Below, piece after piece: positions 5,916 to 33,180 of a DNA stretch of 33,180 nt. The notes below the pieces were generated by a model that did no database searches, had not been told where the DNA came from, and saw nothing but the letters and a program-made list of their open reading frames with translations. Each line of letters starts with the position of its first letter. Position 1 is the first letter of the stretch. The stretch covers positions 1 to 33,180 of the forward strand of contig LDXK01000003.1 of assembly GCA_001443395.1 (NCBI GenBank), given 5' to 3'. The translations under genes were made by a program, and so were the position numbers. Origin of the DNA: a candidate division WWE3 bacterium CSP1-7. GTDB lineage: Bacteria > Patescibacteriota > WWE3 > 9FT-COMBO-53-11.

Positions 5916-6254
5916 TTAGATCAGCGGCTTCCCCGTCAAGATATTTCCAATGAAGTTAATTACCAACCAAGCACCGAAGACGATTACTAACCCCACAACT
6001 GCGGAGGTGATGCGCCCTCTGGCCTGCTCAACGGCGATCTTGTCACCGCCGGAGGTCATGTACTGAATTCCGCCCAAGGCCAATAGAATTAGGGCCAACG
6101 CCCCCACGATTCCTAATATTGCGTTGAAGACTAAACCGATGAGTCCGGGAATATCTTCAGCCGCGGTAATTGGATTTTCGATTGCGAAAATCGGTAGAGC
6201 CGAAAATATCAGTGCCGTTGCTGATGCCGCGATTGTTTTTACTGTTTTAAGCAT
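5916..6254 (-). CDS. TrbC/VirB2-like pilin
   Basis: Signal peptide (PIFA) and GGIQYMTSGGDKIAVEQARGRITSAVVGL; GGGGGTGA RBS. Confidence 0.85.
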   Translation of the reverse strand: MLKTVKTIAASATALIFSALPIFAIENPITAAEDIPGLIGLVFNAILGIVGALALILLALGGIQYMTSGGDKIAVEQARGRITSAVVGLVIVFGAWLVINFIGNILTGKPLI

Positions 6255-15056: not shown

Positions 15057-15145
15057 TGGCGGAGGGGGTGGGATTCGAACCCACGTGAGCCGTTAGGCTC
15101 AAGGGTTTAGCAAACCCTCCCGATGGACCACTCCGGCACCCCTCC
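15057..15145 (-). tRNA. tRNA-Ser(GCT)
   Basis: Cloverleaf with long variable arm; anticodon arm AGGGT-TT-GCT-AA-ACCCT; GTTCGAATC; GCCA end. Confidence 0.95.
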
Positions 15146-15204
15146 GTGTCATCTATATTCTATCAGCTGGAAATTCCCAGTAGCGTTTTGTTACATTAAG
15201 ATTA

Positions 15205-15705
15205 ATGCCGGACAAGCAGGATCTCGAGGAGAGAACCCTTTTGGAGTGGGAGGCGCCGGAACGCCTCTACGTTAAAAGGGGGAAAACCTATTTCAAGAAC
15301 CTTTTTACCCTTCTCGGCGTTCTCGCCGCCGTCGCGATTTTCTTTAAGGAGTTCCTTCTGGCCGGAGTTTTGGCGTCCTTCGGGTTCCTGCAGTGGGCCT
15401 TGAATTCGAGCACCCCCAAAATTACCAAGTATCTCGTCACCAACCGGGGAATCCGAATGCACGGTCACGACTACGAGTGGGAACACCTGAAGGAATTTTG
15501 GTTTGCGGAGCACGCCGGACAGAATGTCCTGCACGTCGACACCAAAGCGACCTTTCCCGGTCGCCTCTACCTGCTCCTCGGAAGAGTGAGCAAAGAGGAA
15601 ATCACAGATGTCTTGCGAAATCACCTTCCCTACCAGCAGCAGGCCAAGGAAGACCTGATGGAGAAGATTTCGGTCGAAGTTTCCCGCCGGTTTCCTTTGG
15701 AATAG
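15205..15705 (+). CDS. Conserved hypothetical membrane protein (two TM + small soluble domain)
   Basis: LLEWEAPER, TM hairpin, GIRMHGHDYEWEHLKEFWF; resembles a common CPR family. Confidence 0.75.
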   Translation: MPDKQDLEERTLLEWEAPERLYVKRGKTYFKNLFTLLGVLAAVAIFFKEFLLAGVLASFGFLQWALNSSTPKITKYLVTNRGIRMHGHDYEWEHLKEFWFAEHAGQNVLHVDTKATFPGRLYLLLGRVSKEEITDVLRNHLPYQQQAKEDLMEKISVEVSRRFPLE

Positions 15706-15754
15706 CTCTTTTTTCTCACCCTTCGGTTATAATTAGAACGATTCTTTAATCATT

Positions 15755-15831
15755 GGGGACGTAGCTCAACTGGACAGAGCGTCAGCTTGCGGAGCTGAAG
15801 GTTGTGGGTTCAACTCCCACCGTCCTCACCA
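15755..15831 (+). tRNA. tRNA-Arg(GCG)
   Basis: GGGGACG/CGTCCTC acceptor; anticodon arm TCAGC-TT-GCG-GA-GCTGA; ACCA end. Confidence 0.93.
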
Positions 15832-15846
15832 TTGATTGTTCTCATT

Positions 15847-15936
15847 GGTGGGATGGCAGAGTGGACGATTGCGCGCGCCTTGAGAGCGCGAGTCCGCGCA
15901 AGTGGACCGGAGGTTCGAATCCTCCTCCCACCGCCA
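15847..15936 (+). tRNA. tRNA-Ser(TGA)
   Basis: Anticodon arm CGCGC-CT-TGA-GA-GCGCG; long variable arm; GCCA end. Confidence 0.95.
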
Positions 15937-15944
15937 AGATTTTA

Positions 15945-16032
15945 GGAGGGGTCGCATAGTGGCCTAGTGCGCACGCTTGGAAAGCGTGTTACCCGCAAGG
16001 GTTCGCGGGTTCAAATCCCGCCCCCTCCGCCA
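15945..16032 (+). tRNA. tRNA-Ser(GGA)
   Basis: Anticodon arm CACGC-TT-GGA-AA-GCGTG; long variable arm; GCCA end. Confidence 0.95.
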
Positions 16033-16071
16033 GTTGTCTTCCAAGTTGGCCGAAAGGTACAATGTGAGGTG

Positions 16072-17565
16072 ATGAGAAAACTGGGGATAGTTGCAGGTTT
16101 GATAGCAGTTGTCGCCGTGGCCGCGTTTGGCATTTGGTGGTTTCTTCTCAATCCCGCTCGGGGCCTATTTCCTAAAAAAACCAATCCTCTAAGCGTTACT
16201 CCTGCTTTGTCCAGTTCCAAAACAGCTTCGAAATCGGTTGGTGCCAAAGGGGGCGAAGTGGCCCTTACCACGGATACCGCGGACTTTAAGCTGTCGCTTC
16301 CGGAGAATTCGGTCAACGTTGCCGAAACCGTCAAGATTACCCAAATCACCGGCATTGAAGGCCTACCCGCGGGCGCGGAATTTGTCGCCGGGGTGGTAGC
16401 CGAGCCCGACGGACTGCTCTTGAACGTTTCCGGTTACTTGGACATTACGCTTCCCGCCGCCGCTTCAACCGAAAGCCTGTTAGGTTTTGCCTACGAGGCC
16501 GGCGGCCAAAATTTCCATTACCTGCCGGTTAGAATCAGCGGCAACACCGCCCGCTTGCCGCTCACCGGTTTTAGCGGCTACGGTCTGATTGAGATCCCCG
16601 AATACCAGGTCCCGCCTTACGTGCCTTCAACCACGGCTTCCCAAGCCAAGCAATATATCGCCAATATCGTTCAGGACAATCTTCGGGAGGACCAGCCCCT
16701 GGACGGAGAAACTGACCGGCGAATTATCAATATCCTGAGAGGGTGGTACAACGCCGCCGTTAAGCCCGGCCTTGAGGCCGCTGCCGGAGATGACAGCGCG
16801 CTCGACCAAGCGCTTAGGGAATACATCGAATGGTGGCAGTTAGTCGGCTTTTTGGGATACGACGAAGATCTTGGAAAGGAGCAGGCCGAAGCCGAGGGAT
16901 TGATCGAACGTGCTCTTACCCACGCCGCCGACGAGTCGAGCCGCAAATGCGTTGCCAATAAAGACGTTGACCAGGCGGCCCGCTTGGTCTGGCTTGCCAA
17001 AATCGCTTTTCTCTTCGACGCCGGGGATCCGGAAGGGATCTACGATAAGGCTCTTAACTGCGCCAACTTTGAATTGGTGATGACTTCCTCGATTTCACTC
17101 GAGGGAATCTCCTCCTCAGCCGAAGCTCGAGTTCCCCTTTTCATCGACAGAGAAACCCTTCTGCTCGAGGGTTCCGGCACAATCACTGAGAGCGACCTCG
17201 TGATTGAGGGCGTTTCTTGCAGCGGGGCTCAAACCTACCCGATTACCGTAGATCCTACTCTCTTTTCCGCTGCCGGTTCACCCGGCAGTTACGATATCTC
17301 GGTTCCCATCACGATTGACTCATCCGGTGCAACCTACACGTGTAAAAATCCCGGCTCCACCCTGACGTTGAGAAACTGGGAGTGGTGGTTTGATGATTTT
17401 GATCGGCTCCACGAGGGGGAAAGTTCTATTTCCGAAAGAGGAGTGACGTACGTTATTAGAGATTGGGAACACGTTGGCCAGAACGGCGTGTTTGCCCGCA
17501 AGGTCTACAATCGGGGTTCAACGGAAAACACCACCTTTGAACTTATCCACAAACCTCAGAATTAA
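16072..17565 (+). CDS. Membrane-anchored extracellular protein (ZU5-like beta domain, helical middle, beta C-domain)
   Basis: Start MRKLGIVAG after the tRNA; TM; VGAKGGEVAL...LSLPENSV...EPDGL...GFSGY resembles ZU5-like domains (tentative). Confidence 0.7.
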   Translation: MRKLGIVAGLIAVVAVAAFGIWWFLLNPARGLFPKKTNPLSVTPALSSSKTASKSVGAKGGEVALTTDTADFKLSLPENSVNVAETVKITQITGIEGLPAGAEFVAGVVAEPDGLLLNVSGYLDITLPAAASTESLLGFAYEAGGQNFHYLPVRISGNTARLPLTGFSGYGLIEIPEYQVPPYVPSTTASQAKQYIANIVQDNLREDQPLDGETDRRIINILRGWYNAAVKPGLEAAAGDDSALDQALREYIEWWQLVGFLGYDEDLGKEQAEAEGLIERALTHAADESSRKCVANKDVDQAARLVWLAKIAFLFDAGDPEGIYDKALNCANFELVMTSSISLEGISSSAEARVPLFIDRETLLLEGSGTITESDLVIEGVSCSGAQTYPITVDPTLFSAAGSPGSYDISVPITIDSSGATYTCKNPGSTLTLRNWEWWFDDFDRLHEGESSISERGVTYVIRDWEHVGQNGVFARKVYNRGSTENTTFELIHKPQN

Positions 17566-17616
17566 TTTTTATCTTTTGCGATGTTAAACTGAGCGTAGCT
17601 TAGTGCACGAGATTAG

Positions 17617-17693
17617 GCGCCCGTAGCTCAGTTGGATAGAGCGCTGCCCTCCGAAGGCAGAGGCCAGAGGTTCGAATCCTCTCGGGCGCACCA
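17617..17693 (+). tRNA. tRNA-Arg(CCG)
   Basis: GCGCCCG/CGGGCGC acceptor; anticodon arm CTGCC-CT-CCG-AA-GGCAG; ACCA end. Confidence 0.95.
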
Positions 17694-17744
17694 CGGATCG
17701 AACCAGAGAATTCGCGGTAGCGAATAGCCGCCCCAGGCGGATAA

Positions 17745-17766
17745 TCGACTCCTCTCGGGCGCACCA
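17745..17766 (+). repeat. Direct repeat of the tRNA-Arg(CCG) 3' end (att-like)
   Basis: TCGACTCCTCTCGGGCGCACCA versus TCGAATCCTCTCGGGCGCACCA at 17672-17693; 21/22 identical. Confidence 0.9.
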
Positions 17767-17787
17767 GTTTTGTTACACTCGTTCCAG

Positions 17788-18711
17788 GTGGCAAAAATTC
17801 AGTTGCCGAAATTCAATAAAAAGCTCGCGGCAATCATTGTCGCGATTTTGCTCCTTCTTCTTGCCGTGATTGCCCTCGCTTGGGACCAATTTGGGCCGGA
17901 GCCCGAAAGTCAACCCACCGAACAGCCGGAAGAAAGTCAGGAAACGCCTCCGGTGGAAGAAGGTGCCCTGATCACCAAGGTCTCCGTGTCGGTTTCCCCC
18001 TCGACCTACTCGAGTACCTCCTGCTCTAAAGCCTTTAAGTTTACCGGCAAAATCACCGCCAGCCGGGAGGGAACGGTGAAATATTACTGGGAAAAGAGCA
18101 ACGGCGGCAAATCCACTTCCCAAACCGTTAAATTCACCAAAGCCGAAACCAAAAGCGTTTCCTATTCCTGGACGGTGAACGGGGATTACAGCGGTTGGGC
18201 TCGGCTCAAAACTACCTCCCCGGAAACACTTACTTCCAGCAAGGCCTCCTTTACCGAAACCTGCGTCTTCGCTGTGACAAGCGTGACGGCGAGCGTTTCT
18301 CCGAGTACGAACAACAGCTGCCCCACCGAGACCTACAACTTTACGGGGAAGATTACGGTTAATGAGGCCGGGACGGTCAAGTATAAGTGGGAGCGGGCCT
18401 ACGACGAGGACTTTGACGGAAGCATCGAGACCCTCTCAAGCACCTCAACTAATAACTTAACTTTCACAAAGGCGGGCACAAAAACGGTAAGCCGATCGGA
18501 TGATTATGGCCTTGAGATAGTTTACGCTCCCGATTCTTCGATATTCTCTAGATTTTTGGTCTGGCTTCGGAACTTGTTTAGCCCGGTTGTCAATGCGATT
18601 TTTTATCCTCCAGATGGTCAAGAAGGATGGGAGCGGATCAAAGTTACTTCTCCTAATTCCAAAACATCAAACAAAGCGGAATTTACCTACGACATGAGCA
18701 ATTGTCTCTGA
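17788..18711 (+). CDS. Membrane-anchored Ser/Thr-rich protein with two tandem Ig-like repeats
   Basis: TM, Pro/Glu linker, two copies of SVSPST..C...F/YxFTGKIT...GTVKYxWE...FTKAxTKxVS...GWxRxKxTSP...SxKAxFT. Confidence 0.8.
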   Translation: MAKIQLPKFNKKLAAIIVAILLLLLAVIALAWDQFGPEPESQPTEQPEESQETPPVEEGALITKVSVSVSPSTYSSTSCSKAFKFTGKITASREGTVKYYWEKSNGGKSTSQTVKFTKAETKSVSYSWTVNGDYSGWARLKTTSPETLTSSKASFTETCVFAVTSVTASVSPSTNNSCPTETYNFTGKITVNEAGTVKYKWERAYDEDFDGSIETLSSTSTNNLTFTKAGTKTVSRSDDYGLEIVYAPDSSIFSRFLVWLRNLFSPVVNAIFYPPDGQEGWERIKVTSPNSKTSNKAEFTYDMSNCL

Positions 18712-18792
18712 TTAACGGGAAAGATATTCCTCGAGCGTGACCCCCTTTTTATAGAGTTTTGTTGCGAGTTGGATCCCAACCCAGCGGATGTA
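18712..18792 (-). pseudogene. Stranded diverged 3' end of the VanY-type peptidase gene
   Basis: Minus strand encodes YIRWVGIQLATKLYKKGVTLEEYLSR* versus HIRYVGIKLATQLYQQKLTLEEYLTRE* at the end of the intact gene. Confidence 0.9.
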
Positions 18793-18796
18793 CTGT

Positions 18797-18814
18797 CCTT
18801 CGCTTACGCTCAGG
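18797..18814. repeat. REP-like short palindrome
   Basis: CCTTCGCTTACGCTCAGG; the reverse complement CCT-GA-GC-GTAA-GC-GA-AGG forms a hairpin with tandem GA pairs and a GNRA loop. Confidence 0.5.
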
Positions 18815-18826
18815 TTGTAATTTCGC

Positions 18827-19585
18827 TTACTCCCTTGTTAGGTACTCTTCTAAAGTTAGTTTTTGTTGATAAAGTTGGGTAGCTAACTTAATTCCGACGT
18901 AGCGAATATGCCAGGGTTCGCTGATGTATCCGGTGATGCTTTCTTTTCCGGGCTGATAGGAAACCGTAAAACCGAATTTGTAGGCGTTCTTGGCGACCCA
19001 GCCGGCGGCGGGGCTGGCGGTGAAGCTCGCAAAATCCGAATTCCCTACCAGACCGAGGTCCACGACTGTTCCAAGCTGGTGTTCGGAATGTCCCGGTCGG
19101 GCGGATCCCATTAAAGCGGCGGCGTATCCGGATTGGCTAACCCAGTAGTTAAAGGTTGCAACTTGAGTAGAGTAGGAGCGATAGGCCGAGACTACGGAAA
19201 GGTTGAAACCGGACGTTTTAGCCGCTCCATAAAGTTGATTGAGATAGTTAAGAATGTCGCCGCCGCGGAGATATTCTGTTCCGGTAGTAGGAATGCTAGT
19301 GATCCTGGTGAGCCCGGGAGGGACGTAGCTCGCCGGCAGGGCGCAGCTCTTATTGACGTGGGTGAGAATCATACCCCCTTCTACAGCGAGCACGCACTCT
19401 CCGGCTTGGATGATATCCCTGGTTCCCAGCACGCTTCCCTGGGTAGCCTCACTCGGCGGGATCGTCGCGAACAGCCCCCAGGATTCCTTGGCGACGATTT
19501 TCTGGGGAGACGCGAACCGGTGGCCGACACCCAATCCCAACAGGAAGAAATACCCCAAGATCGGAAAAAGATGTTTTAGCCGCAT
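18827..19585 (-). CDS. M15B (VanY-like) D-alanyl-D-alanine carboxypeptidase
   Basis: SAYRSYSTQ, SARPGHSEHQLGTVVD and EPWHIRYVG motifs; N-terminal anchor; start MRLKHLF at 19585. Confidence 0.92.
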   Translation of the reverse strand: MRLKHLFPILGYFFLLGLGVGHRFASPQKIVAKESWGLFATIPPSEATQGSVLGTRDIIQAGECVLAVEGGMILTHVNKSCALPASYVPPGLTRITSIPTTGTEYLRGGDILNYLNQLYGAAKTSGFNLSVVSAYRSYSTQVATFNYWVSQSGYAAALMGSARPGHSEHQLGTVVDLGLVGNSDFASFTASPAAGWVAKNAYKFGFTVSYQPGKESITGYISEPWHIRYVGIKLATQLYQQKLTLEEYLTRE

Positions 19586-19610
19586 ACTCCCATTATAATA
19601 GAGCAGGCGG

Positions 19611-19698
19611 GGAGGCGTGGCCGAGTGGACTAAGGCGCCGATCTCGAAAATCGGTTGGGCGCAAGCCCTCACAGGTTCGAATCCTGTCGCCTCCGCCA
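19611..19698 (+). tRNA. tRNA-Ser(CGA)
   Basis: GGAGGCG/CGCCTCC acceptor; anticodon arm CCGAT-CT-CGA-AA-ATCGG; long variable arm; GCCA end. Confidence 0.95.
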
Positions 19699-20434: not shown

Positions 20435-20752
20435 ATGGAAGCCGCTCCCGCAAAGGACGCGAAAGAAAACTCGCTAGCTTCGCCACGCGAAGTTAAACGC
20501 GTAATCGTGGACCGCAATCTCTGCATCGGTGCCGGCAGCTGTGTCGTCGCCGCTCCGACGGTTTTCGAACTCAACGGTGAGAACAAAGCCGTGATCAAAC
20601 AGCAGGGCGGTGTTAAGAACTCCGGCCCGGCCGAGAGAGAAGTGTTGGAAGACCAAGCGATCCCCTATGAAACTCTCCTGGCGGCGGCCCAGTCCTGTCC
20701 CACCAAAGCGATTATCATTGTTGACGAACAAGGAACCCAAATCTATCCGTGA
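20435..20752 (+). CDS. Single-cluster ferredoxin ([3Fe-4S]-type motif)
   Basis: VDRNLCIGAGSCVVAAPTVF ... AAQSCPTKAI. Confidence 0.9.
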   Translation: MEAAPAKDAKENSLASPREVKRVIVDRNLCIGAGSCVVAAPTVFELNGENKAVIKQQGGVKNSGPAEREVLEDQAIPYETLLAAAQSCPTKAIIIVDEQGTQIYP

Positions 20753-24940: not shown

Positions 24941-25837
24941 ATGGAGAGAAAGGGAATAATTTTAGTAGCGGCCACCGCGATCATCTCGGGGATGGCGATC
25001 TTCGTGAGCAAGCTGGGTCTGAAAGACTTTGATCCAGTTCTTTTCACTTGGCTGCGCAACACGATTGTGGCTGTCCTGCTCCTGGGGATCATCGCGGGAG
25101 CGGGAGAGTGGGGAGCGCTCAAAAAGCTCGTCTTTCGGGATTGGTTGCGATTGGCGGCGATCGGTTTGATCGGCGGTTCGATCCCCTTTCTGCTTTTCTT
25201 CCAGGGGCTGGCGCTGACCTCGGCCGCCAACGCTTCGTTCATTCACAAGACAATGTTCGTCTGGGCCGCGTTGTTGGCTGCTCCGCTTTTGGGGGAGCGA
25301 ATGGGGCGGCGATTGCTGCCGGCCGCGGTGCTGCTCCTGCTGGGCAACGCTCTGCTGTTGAAACTTCTTCCCGGCGGGTCGAGCTTTCAGCTTGGCGATC
25401 TGTTGATCCTGGCCGCGACGCTTCTCTGGGCGGGTGAGAACGTACTCTCCAAGCACGTCCTGCGCACCATTCCGCCCAAGATCGTCGCCCTGGGACGAAT
25501 GGGAATCGGGTCGTTGGTCATCCTGGGGGTGCTGATTGCCACCGGCAAGTTGGCGCTCATCAGCCAACTCCCGCCTCTCCATCTGGGTTGGGTGGCGCTG
25601 ACCGCCCTCTTCCCGCTGGGCTACGTTCTGACTTGGTACGCGGGGTTGCGGGAGATCAAGGTGACGACAGCGACCAGCATTCTTCTGTTGGGTTCGCCGG
25701 TTACTACCCTGCTGGTGGCGTTCCAGAGCGGACTACTTCCTTCCTTCCCGCAGGGTTTGGGGATTGCGCTTATTTTGGGGGGATTGGCGGTTCTTCTTCT
25801 CCGACCGCGCCGGAAGATGCAGGTCGCTTCGGCTTAA
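24941..25837 (+). CDS. DMT/EamA family transporter
   Basis: About 10 TM helices in two EamA repeats; AGGAGGGG RBS upstream. Confidence 0.88.
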   Translation: MERKGIILVAATAIISGMAIFVSKLGLKDFDPVLFTWLRNTIVAVLLLGIIAGAGEWGALKKLVFRDWLRLAAIGLIGGSIPFLLFFQGLALTSAANASFIHKTMFVWAALLAAPLLGERMGRRLLPAAVLLLLGNALLLKLLPGGSSFQLGDLLILAATLLWAGENVLSKHVLRTIPPKIVALGRMGIGSLVILGVLIATGKLALISQLPPLHLGWVALTALFPLGYVLTWYAGLREIKVTTATSILLLGSPVTTLLVAFQSGLLPSFPQGLGIALILGGLAVLLLRPRRKMQVASA

Positions 25838-25844
25838 GCTTTTG

Positions 25845-25877
25845 GGCCTCTCGGTTTTGAATCGAGGGGTCTTTTTT
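25845..25877 (+). terminator. Intrinsic terminator
   Basis: GGCCTCTCGGTT-TTG-AATCGAGGGGTC hairpin followed by T6. Confidence 0.75.
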
Positions 25878-25900
25878 CCTTTCGAGTTATACTTACTTTG

Positions 25901-25951
25901 ATGGACGGTTTGCCAACGCAAACCTAACATTTGTACGTCGCAGTTCAAATG
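25901..25951 (+). promoter_or_regulatory. Two-hairpin start-codon element, copy 1 (dnaG leader)
   Basis: ATGGAC-GGTTTGC-CAAC-GCAAACC-TAA-CATTTG-N12-CAAATG(start). Confidence 0.7.
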
Positions 25952-27739
25952 GCAGACCAGATTGAAGAAGTAAAACGAAAGCTCGACATTGTTGAAGTTG
26001 TTTCCTCCTATTTTCCGATCCAGAAATCGGGCAAGAATTACAAAGCCGTTTGCCCGTTCCACTCTGAGAAAACCCCCTCCTTTATGGTTTCCCCCCAGCT
26101 CCAGATTTTCAAGTGCTTTGGGTGCGGCGAAGGCGGCGATGTTATCTCTTTCTACGGCAAAATGGAGGGAGTTTCCTTTAGCGAAGCGCTCCGGGAAATG
26201 GCGAAGCGGGCCGGGGTGAAACTCATCTCCCGAAAGGAGAGCCCGGAGGAGCAGCGCAAGGAGAGACTGCTGGAGCTGAACCGCCTCGCAGCCGACTACT
26301 ACCACTTTTTACTAACTGATCACAAAATTGGTTCAAAAGCGAAAGAATTTTTGAAGAGCCGCGGCGTGAAGGATCAAACGATTGAGGACTTCGAGATCGG
26401 CTACGCTCCCTCTTCTTGGGATAGTCTGGGCCGTTATCTTCTGAAGAAGGGCTACAGTCTTACCGAGCTGTTTCAATCCGGTCTGGCGGTTCGGAAAGAG
26501 GGCGGCCGGGGCTATTTCGATTTCTTCCGCGGCCGGGTGATGTATCCCCTCCGTTCCTCCCTGGGGAAGGTGGCCGGTTTCGCGGGAAGAACTCTTGGTG
26601 ATGACCAACCCAAATACATCAATACGGTCGAGACCTCCGTTTTTGAAAAAGGGCGCTACCTCTTCAATCTTGATCTCGGAAAAACGGAGATCAAAAAGAA
26701 GAGAGAAGCCATTCTGGTCGAGGGGGAAATGGACGCCATTCTTCTCTTTCAGGAGGGGGTCAGGAACGTGATCGCTACCAAGGGAACCGCGTTGTCCACC
26801 TCCCAAATCGTCACCATGTCGAAATTTGCCAAGCGATTGATCATCTGTTTTGACCGCGACGCCGCCGGGTTGGAAGCGACCAAGAAGGGTCTGTTTTTGG
26901 CGCTGGGAGCGGGGTTGGAAGTGGCGGCGGTGCTTCTTCCGGAAGGCAAGGATCCCGATGAAGCGGTTCTGGCGGACCGGGCGGGATTCGAAAAGCTGAT
27001 CAGCTCCGCGCCGCCTCTCTTTGATTTTTACCTTAGTTCGGCCCTCTCGCGTTTTGATCCGAAAACACCGGCCGGCAAGAAAGCTATCTCGGCCGAAATT
27101 CTTCCGGTGGTGAAGAGCTTGGCGAACGAAGTGGAAAAGGCCGCCTATCTTTCTCGGCTGGCGGAGGCGATCGAGATCGAGGAGGATGTTCTCTGGCGCC
27201 AGCTCGAGAAGGAGGAGCCGCTGGAAGAGGCGGGTTCGGCATCGGCCGCTCCGCTCTCACCGCGGGTTTCAGCGAGTAAGAAGGAGCTCTACCTCACCGC
27301 CCTTCTCTTTGCGCTCCCGCCGGAACGGATTAGGGCGGCCGCGCGGCAGATCGCCGAGGGCGATATCACCGATCCGCGGCTGACTCTCGTCATTACCTCT
27401 CTGCGGGATTATCTTAAGAGAATCAAGCGATTTCGTCTGGAGAATTTTTCTGTTAAACTGGATGAGAATTCCCGAGAGGCCCTGCAGGAAGCGGCGCTCG
27501 CTCCCTTTCTAGGTGATCTTCTTCCGGACCAGTTGGAGGAGGAGTTCGGTTACGCCGCCAAGAGTGTTAAGCTCGTTCGCCTGCAAAAGGAGCGCAAAGA
27601 GCTGGTGGCGCAGATCAGGGGGGCGGAAAAAGCCAAGGATGCCCCGGGGATCCGGCGCTCGGAGAAAGAACTTCTCAAGCTCAATGAGAAGATTGAATTG
27701 GTTCGGAACCAAAATGGACGATCGCCCGAGACGACTTAA
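25949..27739 (+). CDS. dnaG: DNA primase
   Basis: CPFHSEKTPSF...CFGC zinc finger, KYINT, TOPRIM VEGEMD and FDRDAAG, KDPDE. Confidence 0.97.
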   Translation: MADQIEEVKRKLDIVEVVSSYFPIQKSGKNYKAVCPFHSEKTPSFMVSPQLQIFKCFGCGEGGDVISFYGKMEGVSFSEALREMAKRAGVKLISRKESPEEQRKERLLELNRLAADYYHFLLTDHKIGSKAKEFLKSRGVKDQTIEDFEIGYAPSSWDSLGRYLLKKGYSLTELFQSGLAVRKEGGRGYFDFFRGRVMYPLRSSLGKVAGFAGRTLGDDQPKYINTVETSVFEKGRYLFNLDLGKTEIKKKREAILVEGEMDAILLFQEGVRNVIATKGTALSTSQIVTMSKFAKRLIICFDRDAAGLEATKKGLFLALGAGLEVAAVLLPEGKDPDEAVLADRAGFEKLISSAPPLFDFYLSSALSRFDPKTPAGKKAISAEILPVVKSLANEVEKAAYLSRLAEAIEIEEDVLWRQLEKEEPLEEAGSASAAPLSPRVSASKKELYLTALLFALPPERIRAAARQIAEGDITDPRLTLVITSLRDYLKRIKRFRLENFSVKLDENSREALQEAALAPFLGDLLPDQLEEEFGYAAKSVKLVRLQKERKELVAQIRGAEKAKDAPGIRRSEKELLKLNEKIELVRNQNGRSPETT

Positions 27740-27808
27740 CATTTGTCCGTCGCTGTTCAAATGGACGACTCGCGATGCGAGATCTAGCATTTTTGCTTTG
27801 CTCAAATG
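27714..27808 (+). promoter_or_regulatory. Two-hairpin start-codon element, tandem copies 2 and 3 (rpoD leader)
   Basis: ATG at 27714, 27761 and 27806 delimit two units of 47 and 45 nt, each ATGGAC-stem-TAR-CATTT-loop-AAATG. Confidence 0.7.
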
Positions 27809-28963
27809 AAACCAACGCTTAAAGATTCACCGCTGGTCGCAAAACTTTTGGAAAAAGGCAAAAGAGAGGGTTACGTAACCCAGGAGGAAGTATTGGAGTT
27901 CTTCCCCGAGGCCGAAGAGGACATCGAGAAGCTGGATGATCTCTACACCCTCCTGATCGAGGAGGGGGTGGATGTTTTTGAAACCGCCGAAGAAGAAGCC
28001 CCGCCGGAGGAAGTGGAGCGGGAATTGGAGGTCCAGGTCGCCCACGACGTGACCGTCACTTCCGACCCGGTGCGAATGTATCTTCGGGAAATCGGTCGGA
28101 CCGCTCTGCTGACCAAAGCGGACGAAGTTACTCTCGCCCAGCAAATCGAGAAAGGAACGGCGGCGGTCTGGCGGCTGAAAAGAGCAACTTCCCGAATGGG
28201 CCGTCCCACCCGCGAGAGAATGAAGGCTCTGGCCCGGATCGGGGATATCGCCCGCGAAAAACTCACCAAAGCGAACCTGCGTTTGGTGGTTTCCATCGCC
28301 AAGAAATACCTGGGGCGGGGGCTTTCGTTTTTGGATTTGATCCAGGAAGGGAACATCGGCCTGATGCGGGCGGTCGAGAAATTCGATTGGAAGCGGGGAT
28401 TCAAGTTCTCAACCTATGCGACCTGGTGGATTCGGCAGGGAATCACCCGAGCGATCGCCGACCAGGCGCGGACGATCCGGATTCCGGTGCACATGATCGA
28501 GACCATCAACAAATTCCACCGGGTGCAGCGTCAGCTGGAGCAAAAACTCGATCGCGAACCCACTCCCCACGAGATCTCCAAGGAATTGGAACTCCCCGTC
28601 GAAAAAGTGCGGGAGATCATCAAAGTTTCCCAACGGCCGACTTCTCTGGAGACGCCAATCGGCGAAGAAAAAGATTCTCGGCTCAAAGACTTCGTTGCCG
28701 ATGAAGAAGTTTCCGCCCCCACCGACGACACCTCCAAGGAGCTTCTCAAACAACAGTTGCTGGAGGTTCTGGGGACGCTCTCTCCCCGGGAGCAAAAAGT
28801 AATCGAACTCCGTTTTGGTCTGCGCGACGGCAAGCCCCGGACGCTGGAAGCGGTCGGGAGGGAGTTTGGCGTGACCCGCGAACGGATTCGCCAGATTGAG
28901 GCCAAGGCAATCCGCAAACTGCGCCACCCCTCCCGCTCCAAGCTCATTAAGGATTATCTCTAG
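27806..28963 (+). CDS. rpoD: RNA polymerase primary sigma factor
   Basis: [52 protein letters not shown]. Confidence 0.98.
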
Positions 28964-29008
28964 TTTTTCTTGCCTCCGATGTCCTATATCTTGTAATCTT
29001 ATTTCTTG

Positions 29009-29914
29009 ATGGATTTGCCCGCCTTTCTGACACCGGCTCTAGTCGCCTACCTCTTTTTGGCCCTGGCGGGCTTGATTGACAAGGTTCTTCTCCAGACCTC
29101 GATTGTTTCTCCCCGGGCTTACGCTTTTTACGTGGGAATTCTGAGCGTGGCGGCGGTGGTCCTTCTCCCTTTCGGGGTGGTGAACATTCCCGATCGCCGG
29201 ATCCTCTTTGCGGCTTTGGTTTCGGGAGTGGCCGGCGTCTACGCCCTCTGGTCCTTCTATAACGCGCTCAAAGAATATGAAGCTTCCCGAGTGATCACCT
29301 CCACCGGGGCGTTGATCCCGGTGTTCACCCTGGTCTTGAGCGTCATCTTCCTGAATGAGTTTCTCGGATTCTTCCAACTATTGGGGTTCTTCATCCTTCT
29401 CCTGGGCGGGGCCGCCGTTTCCTTGAGAGAAAACGTCCGAAAAACTTTCACTTTTGAGCTTTTTAACCACGCGGCGGTAGCAGCAGCGCTCTTCGCCGTT
29501 TCTTTTTCTCTAATGCGTTTCGTTTTTCTGGCAGAACCCTTTCTTAATGGACTCTTTTGGACGAGGATCGGCAGTGTCTTGGGAGCGCTCACAATCATTG
29601 TCATTCCCGAAAACTTCCGCCGCATCTACTGGGCAACCAAAAAAGCGCCCAAAACCGCGCCCGCCCCGTTTCTTTTCAACCAGGGGTTAGGAGGGCTGGG
29701 GGGATTGCTGCAGAATTACGCAATTTCTTTGGGAAGCGCGGCACTAGTTGGGGCGATCCAAGGAGTGCAGTACGCCTTCCTCTTTGTTTTATCCCTCACC
29801 CTGGTTCGCTATTTTCCCCAACTGAAGGAAGTAACTACTCTGCGGCAGAAGGTAGGAAAGGCTTTGGCAATCGTCGCCATCGGATTCGGTCTCTACTTTA
29901 TGACCATAAGATAG
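29009..29914 (+). CDS. DMT/EamA-like transporter
   Basis: About 10 TM helices; LIDK, EASRV, IFLNE, LVGAIQGVQY. Confidence 0.82.
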   Translation: MDLPAFLTPALVAYLFLALAGLIDKVLLQTSIVSPRAYAFYVGILSVAAVVLLPFGVVNIPDRRILFAALVSGVAGVYALWSFYNALKEYEASRVITSTGALIPVFTLVLSVIFLNEFLGFFQLLGFFILLLGGAAVSLRENVRKTFTFELFNHAAVAAALFAVSFSLMRFVFLAEPFLNGLFWTRIGSVLGALTIIVIPENFRRIYWATKKAPKTAPAPFLFNQGLGGLGGLLQNYAISLGSAALVGAIQGVQYAFLFVLSLTLVRYFPQLKEVTTLRQKVGKALAIVAIGFGLYFMTIR

Positions 29915-29917
29915 TCT

Positions 29918-30952
29918 ATGGATAAGAAACGATTTTATCTGAAGATACTTTCAAGAATTATTCTCGGTCTTTTGGGTGTTTTTGCCATTCTGGTGCTGAT
30001 AGCCTATCTCATTTTCGGCCGGGGCGGCGAAGCTCCCAAGATTATTTGGGGCACTTCCTTTGACGCCGCCTACGCCGAGAGCCTAGGTTTGGATTGGAAG
30101 AAGACCTACCTGTCACTGCTTGATGAAGTCGGTGTGGATCGTCTTCGGTTGGTGGCTTTTTGGAACACGGTTGAACCGCAGAGAGACCGGTTTGACTTTT
30201 CAGCACTCGATTTTCAGATGAGCGAAGCCCGGAAACGGGGCATTTCGGTTATCCTGGCGATTGGCCGCCGGCTGCCGCGCTGGCCGGAGTGCCACATCCC
30301 GGATTGGGCGGCGTCTTTTTCGGAAAAAGAACAGCAGGAAGAGGTGACAGGGCTGATTACGGCGGTGGTGAAGCGTTACCGGGATAGCCCTTCTCTGGAA
30401 TTTTGGCAGGTGGAGAACGAGCCCTTCGTCGGCTTTTTTGGGGAGTGTCCCAGACTGAACCGCTCCTTCCTCGAAAGAGAGATTGCGGGCGTGGTCGTGC
30501 TGGACCCGGCTCACCCGGTTCTTCTGACCGATAGCGGGGAGATCTCGAGTTGGTTGGGGGTCTCGGGAGTATCGGAGAACCTGGGGATCTCCATGTATCG
30601 AATGATCTACGACGAGAGCCTGACCAAGCTCTACATCAGCTACCGCCTGTTTTTCCCCCAATGGTACTACCGGATCAAAGCCAACTTCTATCAAAAGATC
30701 GGTCGCCTCAAGACCGTTTTCGTGAGTGAGCTGCAGGCGGAACCCTGGGGGACAAAACCGCTGATCGAAATGTCGAAGGAGGAACAATACGTCAGTTTTT
30801 CTCCCGATCAGTTTCGTTCCAACATCGCCTTTGCCCGTTCCACCGGTTTCGACCGTTTCTACCTCTGGGGGGCGGAGTGGTGGTTCTACGCCCGGGAAAA
30901 GTTGGGAGTTCCTGATTTTGTTGATGAAGCAAAATCGCTCTGGTTGCGGTAA
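29918..30952 (+). CDS. Membrane-anchored clan GH-A glycoside hydrolase (GH5/GH42-like)
   Basis: TM anchor; WNTVEP, WQVENEP (acid/base), SELQAEPW (nucleophile), LWGAEWW. Confidence 0.85.
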   Translation: MDKKRFYLKILSRIILGLLGVFAILVLIAYLIFGRGGEAPKIIWGTSFDAAYAESLGLDWKKTYLSLLDEVGVDRLRLVAFWNTVEPQRDRFDFSALDFQMSEARKRGISVILAIGRRLPRWPECHIPDWAASFSEKEQQEEVTGLITAVVKRYRDSPSLEFWQVENEPFVGFFGECPRLNRSFLEREIAGVVVLDPAHPVLLTDSGEISSWLGVSGVSENLGISMYRMIYDESLTKLYISYRLFFPQWYYRIKANFYQKIGRLKTVFVSELQAEPWGTKPLIEMSKEEQYVSFSPDQFRSNIAFARSTGFDRFYLWGAEWWFYAREKLGVPDFVDEAKSLWLR

Positions 30953-30975
30953 GGCCAATTAATCTGCTACCGTGG

Positions 30976-32172
30976 ATGCGAATGGGTTTGTCGGCAATAG
31001 CTAAAGGCGTTTCTGCTCACAGGAAAGCTCTTCTTTTTGGGGGGCTTATTTTTTTCCTAATTTTGGCGCTAGGAGCGGGCGGTTTTAGATGGTGGAGTCA
31101 TCAGGAGTTCGAGAAGTTCGTCGGGAGGATCGAAGGATTTAGCCAACAAGAGTTGACCCTTATTTTGGCGATGGACAAACTCGAAAAGGACCTAAAGGCC
31201 GAGTTCGATGCGATCTCCTTTAAGGAAGGAGCCAGTCTTGCGGAAAATAAAAAGCATCTGGCCAATGGAGAAAAAACCACCGATGAATTCTACAGCAAGC
31301 AAACGGATGAGTATCTGCCTCTTTTCGAACAGGAAATTGACGAGGTCGACCAGTTTTTGGCCCGCCGCTATCTCTGGCTTTGGGGCAAGGAGAAGGAATT
31401 TCTCAGCCTCATCACTTCGGTATCGGAGAACGCTACGAAAGCAAAGGATGCCGATGCGGTTATCATTGAGCGATCAAAGCTCCTCTCGACGGTTTCGTTT
31501 GTGACTCAATCCGACTCAATTGCTTACCTTGGTTTTATAGGAGATCTCGATAAGATAATTGCCTCGGTTTCCGCCACGACGAAGGCTTTAGCGCCTCTCA
31601 AGAAGTACACCACCGGTTACAAATTCCCGGAAGAGGACCAAATAAAAACGCTTTACCCCGATCTTTATCAAGTTTTGAAAAACTACAAGGCTCTCTACAG
31701 CAAGACTTATGAAATGTTCATCGCTTATGCAAATAAGGATTACGCTAAAACAATGAAGCTTTCCGACGAAATTACCACGATCAGTAAGCGCAATTTTGAT
31801 TTGGTAATTGATTGGGATCCTCTTAACCGTCCTTTTTTCCAATCTGAACTGGACGCGCATTTGCAGGGTCTTGCGGCGGTTAATCTCTATCAAGAAAACA
31901 GACTGGGGAAAGTTTCGCTTGGAGAGCGGAGGTTAGCGGCTTCGGCATTGGTCTGGGCGATCCAGCTTTATTCCCTTGATCACAAAGATAAATACCCCAA
32001 GGCGAGTAACATCGATGCTGCCGTTAAGGTTTTGACGGAAGGGAAATACCTTCCCACGGACTTAAGTTTTGACCAAACAACTTTCTCCCTGTCTTCGAGC
32101 GAAAAAGAGTATCAGCTCAACTTCACGGATGAGGTAACGGGGGAAGTGGCATCAATCACCGCAAGTAATTAG
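30976..32172 (+). CDS. Membrane-anchored alpha-helical protein with C-terminal pilin/pseudopilin-like domain
   Basis: N-terminal TM, long helical body, C-terminal AIQLYSLDHKDKYP...LTEGKYLP. Confidence 0.65.
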   Translation: MRMGLSAIAKGVSAHRKALLFGGLIFFLILALGAGGFRWWSHQEFEKFVGRIEGFSQQELTLILAMDKLEKDLKAEFDAISFKEGASLAENKKHLANGEKTTDEFYSKQTDEYLPLFEQEIDEVDQFLARRYLWLWGKEKEFLSLITSVSENATKAKDADAVIIERSKLLSTVSFVTQSDSIAYLGFIGDLDKIIASVSATTKALAPLKKYTTGYKFPEEDQIKTLYPDLYQVLKNYKALYSKTYEMFIAYANKDYAKTMKLSDEITTISKRNFDLVIDWDPLNRPFFQSELDAHLQGLAAVNLYQENRLGKVSLGERRLAASALVWAIQLYSLDHKDKYPKASNIDAAVKVLTEGKYLPTDLSFDQTTFSLSSSEKEYQLNFTDEVTGEVASITASN

Positions 32173-32208
32173 GCCTCTCATCGCCAGATTTTATTAGAAT
32201 AGAGGAAG

Positions 32209-32252
32209 ATGGACGGTCGGAGAAACGGCCTAGCATTTTGGAGAAAAAAATG
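32209..32252 (+). promoter_or_regulatory. Two-hairpin start-codon element, copy 4 (GH1 leader)
   Basis: ATGGAC-GGTCG-GAGAAA-CGGCC-TAG-CATTTT-GGAGAAA-AAAATG(start). Confidence 0.65.
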
Positions 32253-33180
32253 ACAGAAAAGAATTTTCCGAAAGGGTTTCTTTGGGGCTCGGCAACTTCC
32301 GCCTATCAAGTCGAGGGCGGCAATCGCAACTCCGATTGGGAGGCGCTCTCTTCTCCCAAAGCCGGGGCCGCTTGTGATCACTACCGGCGCTTTGAAGAGG
32401 ATTTCGACCTGGTCAAATCCCTGAATCAGAATGCGCACCGGTTCTCGATCGAGTGGGCGAGAATTGAACCTGAGAAAGGCCGTTTTGACGAGCGGGAGGT
32501 GGCACACTACCGACAGGTTTTGATGGTCCTAAAAAAGCGGAGAATTAGGCCTCTGGTGACCCTGCATCACTTCACCAACCCGCTCTGGGTCTTCCGGCGC
32601 GGCGGTTGGGAAAACCCCGCCACCCCGAGCTACTTCGCCTCCTACGTGCGCTACTTGGTGACCCGGCTGGCAGACCTCTGCGATTTCTGGATAACGGTCA
32701 ACGAACCCACAGTTGCCGCTGCCGAAGGGTATCTCTGGGGTCGATGGTTGCCGGGAAAGCACGACCCGCTCTCCGCCGCGGTGGTGCTGAAGCACTTGCT
32801 TCAGGCACACCAATTAGCTTATTCAATCATTCACAACATTCAGCCGGAGGCACAGGTGGGCTTGTCGCACGCCCTTACCCCGCTCAAAGTGCCGGGAACC
32901 GATAGGGTTTTCCTGCATTTGGACCGACGCAGCATTGATTGGGCGGGAAAACAGGACTTCATCGGAGTCAACTACTACCGCCCGTTTGGAGGAGTAATAA
33001 ATTTACCCAAGAGTGACCTGGGATGGGCAATCTACCCCCAAGGGCTCTACCACATCTTGAACCAACTCCGGAGCATCGGTCTCCCGCTCTATGTGACGGA
33101 GAACGGGATTGCCGATGCCGATGACGATCAACGGGCCGATTACATTGCCGATCACCTCTTCGCCGTTTGGCGTGCGCTTC
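32250..33180 (+). CDS. Glycoside hydrolase family 1 (beta-glucosidase), runs off the window; not in the ORF track
   Basis: MTEKNFPKGFFWGSATSAYQVEG, HRFSIEWARIEP, TLHHFTNP, TVNEP (acid/base), GVNYY, YVTENG (nucleophile). Confidence 0.95.
   Translation, partial: MTEKNFPKGFLWGSATSAYQVEGGNRNSDWEALSSPKAGAACDHYRRFEEDFDLVKSLNQNAHRFSIEWARIEPEKGRFDEREVAHYRQVLMVLKKRRIRPLVTLHHFTNPLWVFRRGGWENPATPSYFASYVRYLVTRLADLCDFWITVNEPTVAAAEGYLWGRWLPGKHDPLSAAVVLKHLLQAHQLAYSIIHNIQPEAQVGLSHALTPLKVPGTDRVFLHLDRRSIDWAGKQDFIGVNYYRPFGGVINLPKSDLGWAIYPQGLYHILNQLRSIGLPLYVTENGIADADDDQRADYIADHLFAVWRAL

Follow-up and report, generated by a model that had tools for sequence, protein, structure and literature searches.

Hairpin repeats at gene starts in a WWE3 bacterium: probable miniature mobile elements resembling REP and MIRU repeats

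The dnaG, rpoD and GH1 gene starts

The window analysed here, by which we mean the whole 33,180-nt stretch of DNA from a 572-kb genome (labelled G000), carries dnaG, rpoD and a GH1 gene whose start codons each lie in the last bases of a short hairpin-bearing unit (Table 1). An earlier note on this DNA had marked off four such units from one ATG to the next, at 25901-25948 (48 nt), 27714-27760 (47), 27761-27805 (45) and 32209-32249 (41), and they lie where it placed them. The stems that it listed are present (GGTTTGC/GCAAACC, CTCGC/GCGAG with a bulged A, and GGTCG/CGGCC with one T.G), as is a second pairing, CATTT with AAATG, which falls on the downstream start codon in all four copies. Copy 2, whose first stem was described as weaker, is degenerate, with TTAA for CTAG and 15.0 bits against 29.6-37.7 for the other three. 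The pattern TGGACN{14,19}TARCAT matches exactly the four copies in the window (0.10 expected; 0 of 100 shuffles reached 4), and two shorter words taken alone are not significant there, ATGGACG occurring 6 times against 3.47 expected and TARCATTT 4 times against 1.48. DNA contigs from 4 independent runs cover copies 1-3 with zero differences, so these copies are no assembly artefact.

The terminator-like hairpin ahead of copy 1 closes the upstream gene, and dnaG therefore requires its own promoter within the following ~70 nt; the -10 hexamers reported ahead of copies 1 and 4 are indeed there. At the other end of dnaG the stop codon (TAA, 27737-27739) falls within copy 2, and the final DnaG residues are thus encoded by the element. 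A fifth, variant copy falls inside the first 50 nt of an ORF at 20435-20752.

Table 1. Features of the window (1-based positions). X(up) and X(down) are the two direct copies of the bordering sequence X; X' is complementary to both.
Feature	Position	Strand	Score or remark	Parts
Fifth copy, variant	20453..20480	+	9.8 bits, E 2.7	AAAG, GACG-hairpin-CTAG, CTT
Terminator-like hairpin and T-run, end of upstream gene	25844..25879	+	13-pair stem, then TTTTTT	stem 25844-25872
-10-like hexamer TATACT	25888..25893	+	7 nt upstream of copy 1 first ATG	
Copy 1	25900..25951	+	family model 29.6 bits, E 5e-06	X(up) GATG 25900-25903; GACG 25904-25907; hairpin 25907-25924 (7 bp, loop CAAC); CTAA (CTAG variant) 25924-25927; X' CATTTG 25928-25933; X(down) CAAATG 25946-25951
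dnaG coding sequence	25949..27739	+	NCBIfam dnaG 419.8 bits	start codon 25949-25951, within copy 1 X(down)
Copy 2, degenerate	27714..27763	+	family model 15.0 bits, E 0.084	ATG 27714-27716; GACG 27717-27720; weak stem; TTAA in place of CTAG; X' CATTTG 27740-27745; X(down) CAAATG 27758-27763, common to copy 3
Copy 3, tandem with copy 2	27761..27808	+	family model 31.1 bits	ATG 27761-27763; GACG 27764-27767; hairpin 27767-27784 (bulged A); CTAG 27784-27787; X' 27788-27795; X(down) CAAATG 27803-27808
rpoD coding sequence	27806..28963	+	NCBIfam RpoD models	start codon 27806-27808, within copy 3 X(down)
-10-like hexamer TAGAAT	32195..32200	+	8 nt upstream of copy 4 first ATG	
Copy 4	32209..32252	+	family model 37.7 bits	ATG 32209-32211; GACG 32212-32215; hairpin 32215-32230 (loop GAGAAA); CTAG 32230-32233; X' CATTTT 32234-32239; GGAG 32240-32243; X(down) AAAATG 32247-32252, with GH1 start codon 32250-32252

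A repeat family and its architecture

The four window copies are part of a larger repeat family, which numbers at least 40 in the genome, an extent that the earlier note had understated. The expression TGGACGN{11,18}CTAGCA has 37 exact matches in G000 and 0 in the control, and a strict detector finds 40 copies in G000, 45 in the related genome G002 and 2 in a reversed-genome control. A covariance model of the family has matches in 8 of the 9 other genomes of the same taxonomic family (19-43 per genome in the genus, 0-11 elsewhere) and none in the 124 genomes taken from the rest of the class. No Rfam model matches at the copies even at E <= 5, only tRNAs reaching the gathering score, in keeping with the remark that no known riboswitch or ribozyme could be recognised; an Rfam-type riboswitch was rejected on this ground and on the functional incoherence of the downstream genes.

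The conserved unit consists of X, a GACG-hairpin-CTAG segment, X', a loop and a second X, and X' is complementary to both X sequences, the one directly upstream and the one that closes the unit. The ATG...ATG borders originally described hold for the window copies but are only the commonest case of X, since TTG, GTG and the first 18 nt of tRNA genes are also found; among 37 copies the first triplet changes in concert with the last one and with the base that follows CTAGCA (A/T/ATG in 20, T/A/TTG in 9, G/C/GTG in 2). The fixed parts are limited to a 3x3 internal loop, GAC/TAG, with its closing G-C pairs, and both the hairpin and the X:X' helix covary. The covariation of the first stem, suspected from the window copies, is borne out over 72 copies (score 0.432 against 0.151 when shuffled, with 0 of 500 shuffles as high, and 0.07-0.14 when the partners were slid). 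Pairing of X with X' past the fixed bases beats every shuffle at positions 3 and 4, and the hairpin of X' with X(down) has means of 6.0 and 6.7 contiguous bp against 2.8 shuffled. Hairpin length ranges over 12-19 nt while the GACG and CTAG boxes stay in register. As direct repeats, the two X sequences measure 3-8 nt where the target is a start codon and 14-21 nt where it is a tRNA gene (0-32 nt overall), and the functional start codon or 5' end of the tRNA is in the second X. The X and X' arms differ among copies, each fitting its local target, and X' in tRNA-leader copies follows each tRNA's own 5' sequence. Units form tandem head-to-tail arrays, and inverted doublets also occur.

The predicted position bias to start codons is seen genome-wide, with 23 of 37 copies in G000 and 26 of 40 in G002 ending at the initiation codon of a reading frame of 50 aa or more. 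By rough gene calls, 34 of 48 copies face a gene on the same strand and 14 are antisense, and element orientation tracks local gene orientation rather than GC skew. Many copies lie within operons, 3-14 nt past the upstream stop codon, and -10-like hexamers cluster 5-12 nt ahead of the first NTG. The downstream genes are unrelated (prfB, RNase Y, S9, S11, L29, L20, NusA, FtsK, UDG, RpoD, DnaG and GH1 among them). The loop of the element is purine-rich; selection for some part in expression might account for this, as for the sense bias and the precise coincidence with start codons.

Presence and absence at orthologous sites

When the 5' regions of dnaG and rpoD were compared, as the earlier note had proposed, the element was absent from all 9 rpoD orthologues, from all 7 dnaG orthologues that had 150 nt readable (G006 gave only 22 nt, also without the element, and G003 was masked) and from all 9 GH1 loci. 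The observation that removal of one unit would leave an ordinary leaderless-looking gene is matched by the element-free dnaG orthologue of G002, which reads TAGAAT, 9 nt, ATG. For 36 of the 48 copies in G000 both flanks lie on a single G002 contig; the spacing agrees within 8 nt at 6 of these sites, is shorter in G002 by at least 27 nt at 21 and is longer by at least 21 nt at 9. Automated calling gave 12 sites that are filled only in G000 and 8 that are filled only in G002, and comparison of G000 with its congener yields many clean filled and empty sites with exact borders. Some of these display an X' specific to the target, as in CCTAAATG / CATTTAGG against the empty site CCTAAGTG, and in a second case TCAATCTTG against the empty TCAATCCTG. 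One orthologous site can hold a wholly different hairpin in another genome.

Sites 14 and 19 have orthologous copies kept between species, an observation that is also compatible with function.

The absence of the element from sister rpoD, dnaG and GH1 loci, taken with the filled and empty sites, indicates recent gain of a small repeat at the level of DNA and no conserved regulator of these genes. Among the explanations offered at the outset, that of a mini mobile element directed at start codons thus fares best, given the orthologue absence, the precise filled and empty sites, the tandems and the single-family range. We judge, at a probability of roughly 0.68, that the copies are lineage-specific, miniature, non-autonomous mobile hairpin repeats of a REP/MIRU-like kind, which would enter genes at their 5' ends and restore the interrupted start.

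Alternative explanations

A competing account, which we regard as possible though rather unlikely, holds that duplication has spread a functional RNA module acting in cis. As a 5' leader it would have two states, X' being paired with the decoy X upstream, which frees the start codon or the 5' end of the tRNA, or else with the X downstream, which buries the start; a factor bound to the GAC/UAG internal loop and hairpin might set the state. The complementarity of X' to both copies of X is what such a leader would have, as are the sense-strand X:X' pairs (38 G.T against 19 C.A), the sense bias, the -10-like boxes directly upstream, which would put the element at the transcript 5' end, and the conservation of certain orthologous copies. 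The minimum-energy fold of copy 4 (-12.5 kcal/mol, z -3.64) has X(up) bound to X', with GGAG and AUG unpaired, and in the fold of copy 1 the start codon is paired; the folding of copies 1-3 is, however, unremarkable (z -0.6 to -1.6), and a good Shine-Dalgarno word occurs in just 7 of 48 loops. Against this account also stand the lack of any Rfam match and the absence of the four window copies from the closest genomes, where those genes consequently work without the element. A dedicated cis-regulatory RNA is unlikely in view of the unrelated downstream genes and the antisense placement of 14 of 48 copies. A switch driven by a uORF, as once suggested, is not supported, since the frames are not conserved: unit lengths modulo 3 are spread 12/12/15, the uORF stop falls anywhere between -51 and +149 nt, counted from the start, and an ATGA overlap is found in only 7 of 39.

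It is very unlikely that the unit is a portable promoter of sigma-70 type giving short-leader transcripts, in which TGGACG would be the -35 box and TAGCAT, 15-19 nt away, the -10 box; the possibility was raised in the earlier note, and such a unit would resemble Neisseria REP2. Each box fits the sigma-70 consensus at 4 of 6 positions, the TGGACG-CTAGCA spacings are 12-19 nt (mostly 14-17), the start codon follows TAGCAT by 14-20 nt, and a terminator-like hairpin precedes copy 1. Yet the invariant final T of a -10 and a sequence-neutral spacer are both lacking: the putative -10 ends in T, A or C, a position that covaries with one lying 15-25 nt downstream, tRNA-leader copies have TAGCCA, and the supposed spacer is the covarying hairpin. 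A promoter scan of 25700-32400 returned 0 sites, distinct -10-like boxes lie immediately upstream of the element (that of dnaG being in the same place in element-free G002), and many copies sit inside operons just past a stop codon. Least probable of all, to a degree that leaves it scarcely credible, is a device acting in RNA, whether a micro-intron, a self-cleaving RNA or translational bypass between matched ATG codons. The direct repeats at the borders mean that removal of a unit restores the ancestral sequence, and removal would give DnaG a C-terminus like that of its orthologues. A micro-intron is nevertheless unnecessary, since presence and absence are visible in genomic DNA and every copy leaves its gene or tRNA complete; antisense copies exist, no ribozyme family matches and uORF frames are random. 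The ribosome hop envisaged earlier is not supported at copy 2, where the first ATG (27714) is outside the dnaG frame and there is no frame to hop from.

A proposed model for the element and its mobilization

On the mobile-repeat reading, what is recognised would be a folded single strand, as suggested by the constant register of the boxes despite hairpins of 12-19 nt and by the recurrent top-strand C.A mismatch, which is a G.T wobble on the bottom strand. On that strand CTAG lies 5' of the hairpin foot, as in REPs, which further supports single-strand recognition. If a folded single strand is indeed recognised, movement in trans by a host single-strand DNA enzyme is probable. X' may be copied from the target or may select it; we know of no mechanism that gives a direct plus an inverted copy of a target. 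Once inserted, the element would be read from the promoter that the gene already had, the former start triplet becoming a short unconserved uORF or part of an untranslated 5' hairpin, and translation would restart at the regenerated ATG.

The genome has a single RAYT-like HUH gene (C1:146028-146675; Y1_Tnp 33.8 bits against a cut-off of 23, and NCBIfam REP_Tyr_transpos 56.9, under its cut-off of 80), which is a candidate mover only. There is no element copy in the 1.8 kb around this gene, and the ~3.3-kb RAYT-like loci of G003 and G004 hold no exact GACG-hairpin-CTAG with a paired stem. Y1_Tnp occurs in 6 of 9 family genomes and also in 20 of 31 genomes of other families without the element, and was not found in G002 despite its 45 copies. 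A retroelement-derived repeat is not supported, the RVT_1 reverse transcriptase being found in 0 of 4 genus genomes and 2 of 10 family genomes (assemblies 80-85% and 80-92% complete, respectively).

Comparison with known repeat systems

Elements of the IS200/IS605 type follow the replication strand, and have 4-nt guides 5' of two different hairpins and no copy of the target inside the element. The present repeat differs in its one hairpin, its 3-18-nt complementary arms and an orientation independent of GC skew. The likeness, as set out in the relevant part of PMC6006769, is that a single-strand hairpin is known by its shape, that an internal sequence base-pairs with the target or cleavage site, and that target choice is encoded in the element, with insertion exactly 3' of the target. 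MITEs are set apart by conserved terminal inverted repeats and a fixed-length target-site duplication, neither of which the element has. Neisseria REP2 and Borrelia IR-A/IR-B, in the part of PMC3184786 that deals with them, resemble it in lying directly upstream of genes with two stem-loops, a ribosome-binding region and an ATG; REP2, however, is described there as 120-150 bp long, promoter-containing and a mark of a co-regulated gene set, whereas the element is ~45 nt, has no promoter by scan and precedes unrelated genes.

With REPs, as REP and REPIN are defined in the portion of PMC6006769 concerned, the family shares a short GC-rich imperfect hairpin with a fixed tetranucleotide at its foot; the bottom strand of the element reads as 5'-CTAG plus hairpin, its mismatch becoming a G.T wobble. 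It is likewise numerous (tens of copies), extragenic and specific to a species or family, with inverted doublets. RAYT genes are typically single and flanked by their REPs; the RAYT-like gene here is single, and no copy lies in the 1.8 kb around it. The architecture is the same and the word differs, GACG (top) and CTAG (bottom) standing where REPs have GT[AG]G (PMC6006769, same portion). Unlike REPs, the element lies gene-oriented at 5' rather than 3' ends, and it has X/X'/X target repeats, which are not described for REPs.

MIRUs, in the passages of PMC12548453 and PMC3184786 that describe them, are mobile repeats of 40-100 bp at ~40-50 copies per genome which insert at start codons with little disturbance of expression; like the element, they are intergenic in operons, gene-oriented and often tandem, and they leave filled and empty sites with short direct repeats. 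They are transcribed with the genes, as the element would be. The two kinds of repeat agree in lying at start codons, filled in some relatives and empty in others. MIRUs as portrayed there carry a small ORF coupled to the flanking genes, overlapping their stop and start at fixed spacing, whereas frames in the element are random. The two share no sequence similarity and come from different phyla; the element also targets tRNA genes and reaches direct repeats of 18-32 nt. Its defining feature, which MIRUs do not share, is the covarying GACG-CTAG hairpin with target-complementary arms.

Abundance and Range of the Element Family

The element family is real and abundant. The sequence that the earlier note described at four places in the window is as described, and the bipartite pattern TGGACN{14,19}TARCAT has four matches in the 33-kb window, precisely at those places (0.10 expected); either box taken singly shows no significant excess there. 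The window is C3:1-33180 of the host genome (572-kb in 7 contigs, 53% G+C, estimated 80% complete); the host's rpoD has at most 59-60% identity to named relatives, and the host was assigned to a small-genome, CPR-like lineage. The host genome has 37 matches to TGGACGN{11,18}CTAGCA, and the pattern read backwards has 0. A strict detector, for which both boxes must be exact (GACG, CTAG), no fewer than 4 of 5 hairpin positions paired and no fewer than 3 pairs present in the flanks, counts 40 copies in the host and 45 in its congener G002; on a reversed genome, as a control, it counts 2. The element makes up ~0.3-0.5% of the host genome. A covariance model of 72 copies (40 from the congener and 32 of the 37 pattern matches of the host) served for the scan of relatives that had been proposed from the sequence; with up to 48 candidates per genome scored, it detected the element in 8 of the 9 other genomes of the same family and in none of 124 further genomes of the class. 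Under the same scoring, the four genomes of the genus hold at least 38, 43, 42 and 19 copies, and genomes of other genera 0-11. Pattern matches in viral contigs are single per contig, and of the 80 loci retained only 2 reach E <= 0.01 with the family model (28.4 and 23.1 bits), no more than chance would give among sequences chosen for having both boxes. Contigs from four independent DNA runs span copies 1-3 with no differences and with no joint deleting an element; one low-depth joint among them, from 27468 to 27818 (X7), comes from a divergent record.

Copies of the element, scored with the family covariance model, and other features discussed in the text
Feature	Location	Family model
Copy 1 (dnaG)	window 25901-25948	29.6 bits
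Copy 2 (rpoD, tandem), a decayed copy	window 27714-27760	only 15.0 bits, E 0.084
Copy 3 (rpoD, tandem)	window 27761-27805	31.1 bits
Copy 4 (GH1)	window 32209-32249	37.7 bits
Variant copy within predicted coding sequence	window 20453-20480; model hit 20450-20482	9.8 bits
Second-hairpin loops of copies 1 and 2	window 25931-25948, 27746-27757	
Part of copy 2 supplying the end of dnaG	window 27714-27739	
Six-tRNA cluster (Ser x4, Arg x2) without element copy	window 15057-19698	
tRNA-leader locus L188	host C3:33868-34024, just past the window	
tRNA-leader loci L187, L189	host C2:54974-55300, 77945-78100	
Inverted core doublets	host C3 about 51686-51760; host C5 about 18200-18260; congener L154 about 6127-6185	
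Copy inside a 339-aa ORF	host C3:54917-54935, outside the window	
RAYT-like gene	host C1:146028-146675 (L186:529-1173)	

Anatomy of the Element

Each unit consists of a target word (X), a hairpin set between GACG and CTAG, an arm complementary to X (X'), and then a second X, which carries the working start codon or tRNA 5' end. The only invariant parts are the two boxes, GACG and CTAG, and a G-C pair on each side; the sequence, loop and length of the intervening hairpin all vary. The covariation that the earlier note saw in this first stem is borne out on the 72-copy alignment, where the score is 0.432 as compared to 0.151 for shuffled alignments (0 of 500 as high) and falls to 0.07-0.14 when the partners are slid, and where three of the hairpin pairs show 3-4 pair types each with no more than 2 unpaired cells. 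One hairpin position is C.A in 43 of the 72 copies, and over the whole hairpin there are 50 C.A mismatches versus 5 G.T, so the stem pairs better on the opposite strand.

Outside the hairpin, X (5' of GACG) pairs with X' (3' of CTAG), copy-specifically past the fixed bases, and X' pairs also with the second, downstream X. The latter is the second stem that had been noted over the downstream start, and it holds across the copies of both genomes: the mean number of contiguous pairs is 6.0 in the host and 6.7 in the congener, as compared to 2.8 after shuffling. Three parts of the unit covary, namely the triplet that precedes GACG, the base that follows CTAGCA and the closing triplet, in the classes A/T/ATG (20/37), T/A/TTG (9/37) and G/C/GTG (2/37). 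The ATG...ATG bracket of the earlier note is accordingly the commonest class and a special case only, TTG and GTG occurring as well. The common start-codon subtype has a conserved tail, CATTTTGAAGAAACAAAATG with close variants, which suggests that this subtype probably moves as an intact unit into target sites whose last bases are AAATG; such spread would account for head-to-tail arrays too.

Some copies may carry traces of a second core. The second-hairpin loops of copies 1 and 2 hold CGTC(C), the complement of the GACG box, with which the loop of copy 2 pairs in the predicted fold; it may be a remnant of an inverted core. Inverted core doublets with one common arm, which resemble REPINs or BIMEs, are found at two places in the host and one in the congener.

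Position at Gene Starts and tRNAs

The bias toward start codons noted in the window extends genome-wide, with 23 of 37 host copies and 26 of 40 congener copies having a second X whose end is the start codon of an ORF (50 aa or longer). Our gene calls, which are rough, have 34 of 48 copies facing a same-strand gene or tRNA and 14 in antisense, several of the latter within the ribosomal-protein operon. We found no replication-strand bias, both orientations occurring in a single negative-skew stretch of contig C1 and tracking the local genes. The genes after flush copies are unrelated and include those for RF2, RNase Y, S9, S11, L29, L20, NusA, FtsK, uracil-DNA glycosylase, a flavoprotein oxidoreductase, RpoD, DnaG and GH1, among others. 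Upstream of 77 copies, -10-like hexamers number 11 in the 8 gap positions that lie 5-12 nt before the first NTG and 5 in the remaining 47 gap positions; promoter-proximal copies therefore begin at about transcript +1. A terminator-like hairpin directly upstream of the dnaG copy fits such a start there, as does the TAGAAT that stands 9 nt before the ATG of the congener's dnaG, which has no element.

Where the target is a tRNA gene, the first X repeats positions 1-18 of that tRNA, up to and including the D-loop GTGG; X' repeats the same stretch imperfectly and in inverted orientation, in step with the sequence of the tRNA concerned, and the intact tRNA comes after the element. In front of the host tRNA genes Asn, Gly-gcc, Gly-ccc and Leu-cag stand, in this order, a duplicate of the tRNA's initial 7-18 nt, the element and an imperfect inverted copy of that stretch; the congener's tRNA genes Gln, Asp and Gly-tcc have the same layout. 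Seven independent tRNA cases have direct repeats that start at +1 to -4 of the tRNA; at leaderless-type promoters the repeats start close to the predicted +1. In the long cases the length of X' (12-17 nt) follows that of the repeat (14-22 nt), with the exception of the congener's rpmJ, where an X' of 8 nt goes with a 32-nt repeat.

Gain and Loss Between Genomes

At rpoD, dnaG and GH1 the comparison of orthologous 5' regions shows presence in the host and absence in every readable orthologue. None of 9 rpoD orthologues of the family has the tandem copies, and in the congener (RpoD identity 98%) the end of dnaG runs directly into the ATG, without an element. Upstream of dnaG, the 150 nt that can be read in each of 7 orthologues hold no element, and neither do the 22 nt available from G006, a further genome of the family; this count leaves out another, G003, whose upstream stretch reads N (L193, G003 C11). 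At GH1 the element is present at 0 of 9 loci. Both flanks of 36 of 48 host copies lie on a single congener contig, and their spacing there is within 8 nt of that in the host for 6, shorter by at least 27 nt for 21 and longer by at least 21 nt for 9. Alignments of the two genomes show exact 39-50-nt units absent or added, extra tandem units, some orthologous copies with a wholly different hairpin, and a 58-nt inverted doublet that lies just upstream of a TTGACA/TATATT promoter in the congener and has no counterpart in the host. In two clean cases (sites 47 and 8) the empty site already has an 8-9-nt word complementary to X'.

Insertions also reach into coding sequence. The congener's rpmJ (L134, orthologous to host C1 about 83100) has a unit 32 nt inside the L36 coding sequence, and those 32 nt are duplicated after the unit, the duplicates differing at two synonymous positions. 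The last ten codons and stop of the host dnaG are supplied by the degenerate copy 2, and the congener's dnaG ends instead within the first codons of rpoD, so the DnaG C-terminus has been rewritten by insertion. The copy inside the 339-aa ORF adds ~42 nt relative to the congener, apparently in frame.

These gains and losses with exact borders support one of the readings put forward in the earlier note, that of a mini mobile element targeting start codons, and on the genome comparisons the mobile-repeat reading is well supported. A micro-intron, which would leave the RNA, had also been proposed; given the DNA polymorphism and the intact regenerated starts, such excision is not needed, and the element is not necessarily an intron. 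A conserved uORF acting as a switch is contradicted by the reading frames, which divide 12/12/15, and by scattered stop positions, and a ribosome hop by the lack of an in-frame take-off.

The element is also not a promoter, for a scan of window positions 25700-32400 found 0 sites, the final base of the supposed -10 is T, A or C and changes together with a base downstream, the spacer is the covarying hairpin, and -10-like boxes are found upstream instead. Nor is it a riboswitch or other known RNA: the downstream genes are unrelated, and in Rfam only tRNAs reached the gathering score, with nothing at the copies at E-values up to 5. A portable Shine-Dalgarno sequence would suit the canonical 16S 3' end, yet among 48 flush copies the loop holds a good word (GGAG/GAGG/AGGA) in only 7, a weak one (GAAG/AGAA) in 20 and none in 21.

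A Possible Mechanism and a Candidate Enzyme

We infer that the form recognised is a folded single strand, because the two boxes stay in register for hairpins anywhere between 12 and 19 nt long, and because the recurrent C.A mismatch turns into a G.T wobble on the strand that has CTAG ahead of the hairpin. That strand, with CTAG 5' of the hairpin, matches the layout of REPs as outlined in PMC6006769, with a tetranucleotide before the hairpin foot. The host has a single 215-aa HUH Y1 (RAYT-like) gene with HFH and a Y..H..NP-type motif. It is a candidate only, because it scores below the NCBIfam cut-off, because no element copies flank the RAYT-like genes at the loci of the host, G003 and G004 (the last two being further genomes of the family), and because such genes are not family-specific: 26 of 41 genomes of the class have them, frequently more than one, and carrying such a gene does not go together with carrying the element. 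A search of the four genomes of the genus, which are 80-85% complete, turned up no reverse transcriptase.

A more radical possibility, which we consider rather unlikely, is that the arms are made anew from the target at each insertion, by a new mechanism that leaves a potential two-state leader. On this view the conserved core would attach behind a short word (...TG or ...TGG) where the 5' part of a transcribed gene is single-stranded. From there the 3' end of the core would fold back to copy that part as far as its 5' limit, which would make X', and synthesis would then switch to the other strand and re-make the part as the second X. That this limit coincides with the RNA 5' end, at the seven tRNA cases and at the predicted +1 of leaderless-type promoters, suggests that an R-loop or RNA template might define the target. 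The product, if this is true, would be a "programmable" cis-antisense module, able to bury or free the start of any gene.

Significance and Comparison with Known Systems

The ultra-small genomes of uncultured bacteria are usually held to be poor in mobile DNA. Here a young, active-looking micro-repeat occupies the starts of core genes (dnaG, rpoD and those for ribosomal proteins, RNase Y, NusA and release factor 2) as well as tRNA leaders. Such copies mislead annotation, giving spurious start codons, N- and C-terminal extensions and "conserved motifs", and they could be taken for riboswitches or promoters; they also offer a ready strain-typing marker for the lineage.

We did not find the element described in the literature searched on repeats of Patescibacteria/CPR and on hairpins at start codons; the REP tables of PMC6006769 might list atypical REP words. 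None of REP/RAYT, MIRU, MITE, IS200/IS605 ends or REP2 explains the kind of insertion chemistry that is suggested by the target-complementary arms and by repeats starting at RNA 5' ends. MIRUs are described as mobile and inserting at start codons (PMC12548453, PMC3184786), and the REP2 repeats of Neisseria and IR repeats of Borrelia as supplying stem-loops, a ribosome-binding site and the ATG (PMC3184786). The element has its way of life in common with MIRUs, its hairpin-plus-tetranucleotide logic with REP/RAYT and its position with REP2 and the Borrelia IR repeats, and from each of these systems it departs in one or more defining features. After MIRUs, it is the second case, and an independent one, of a repeat that persists because it restores the start into which it inserts.
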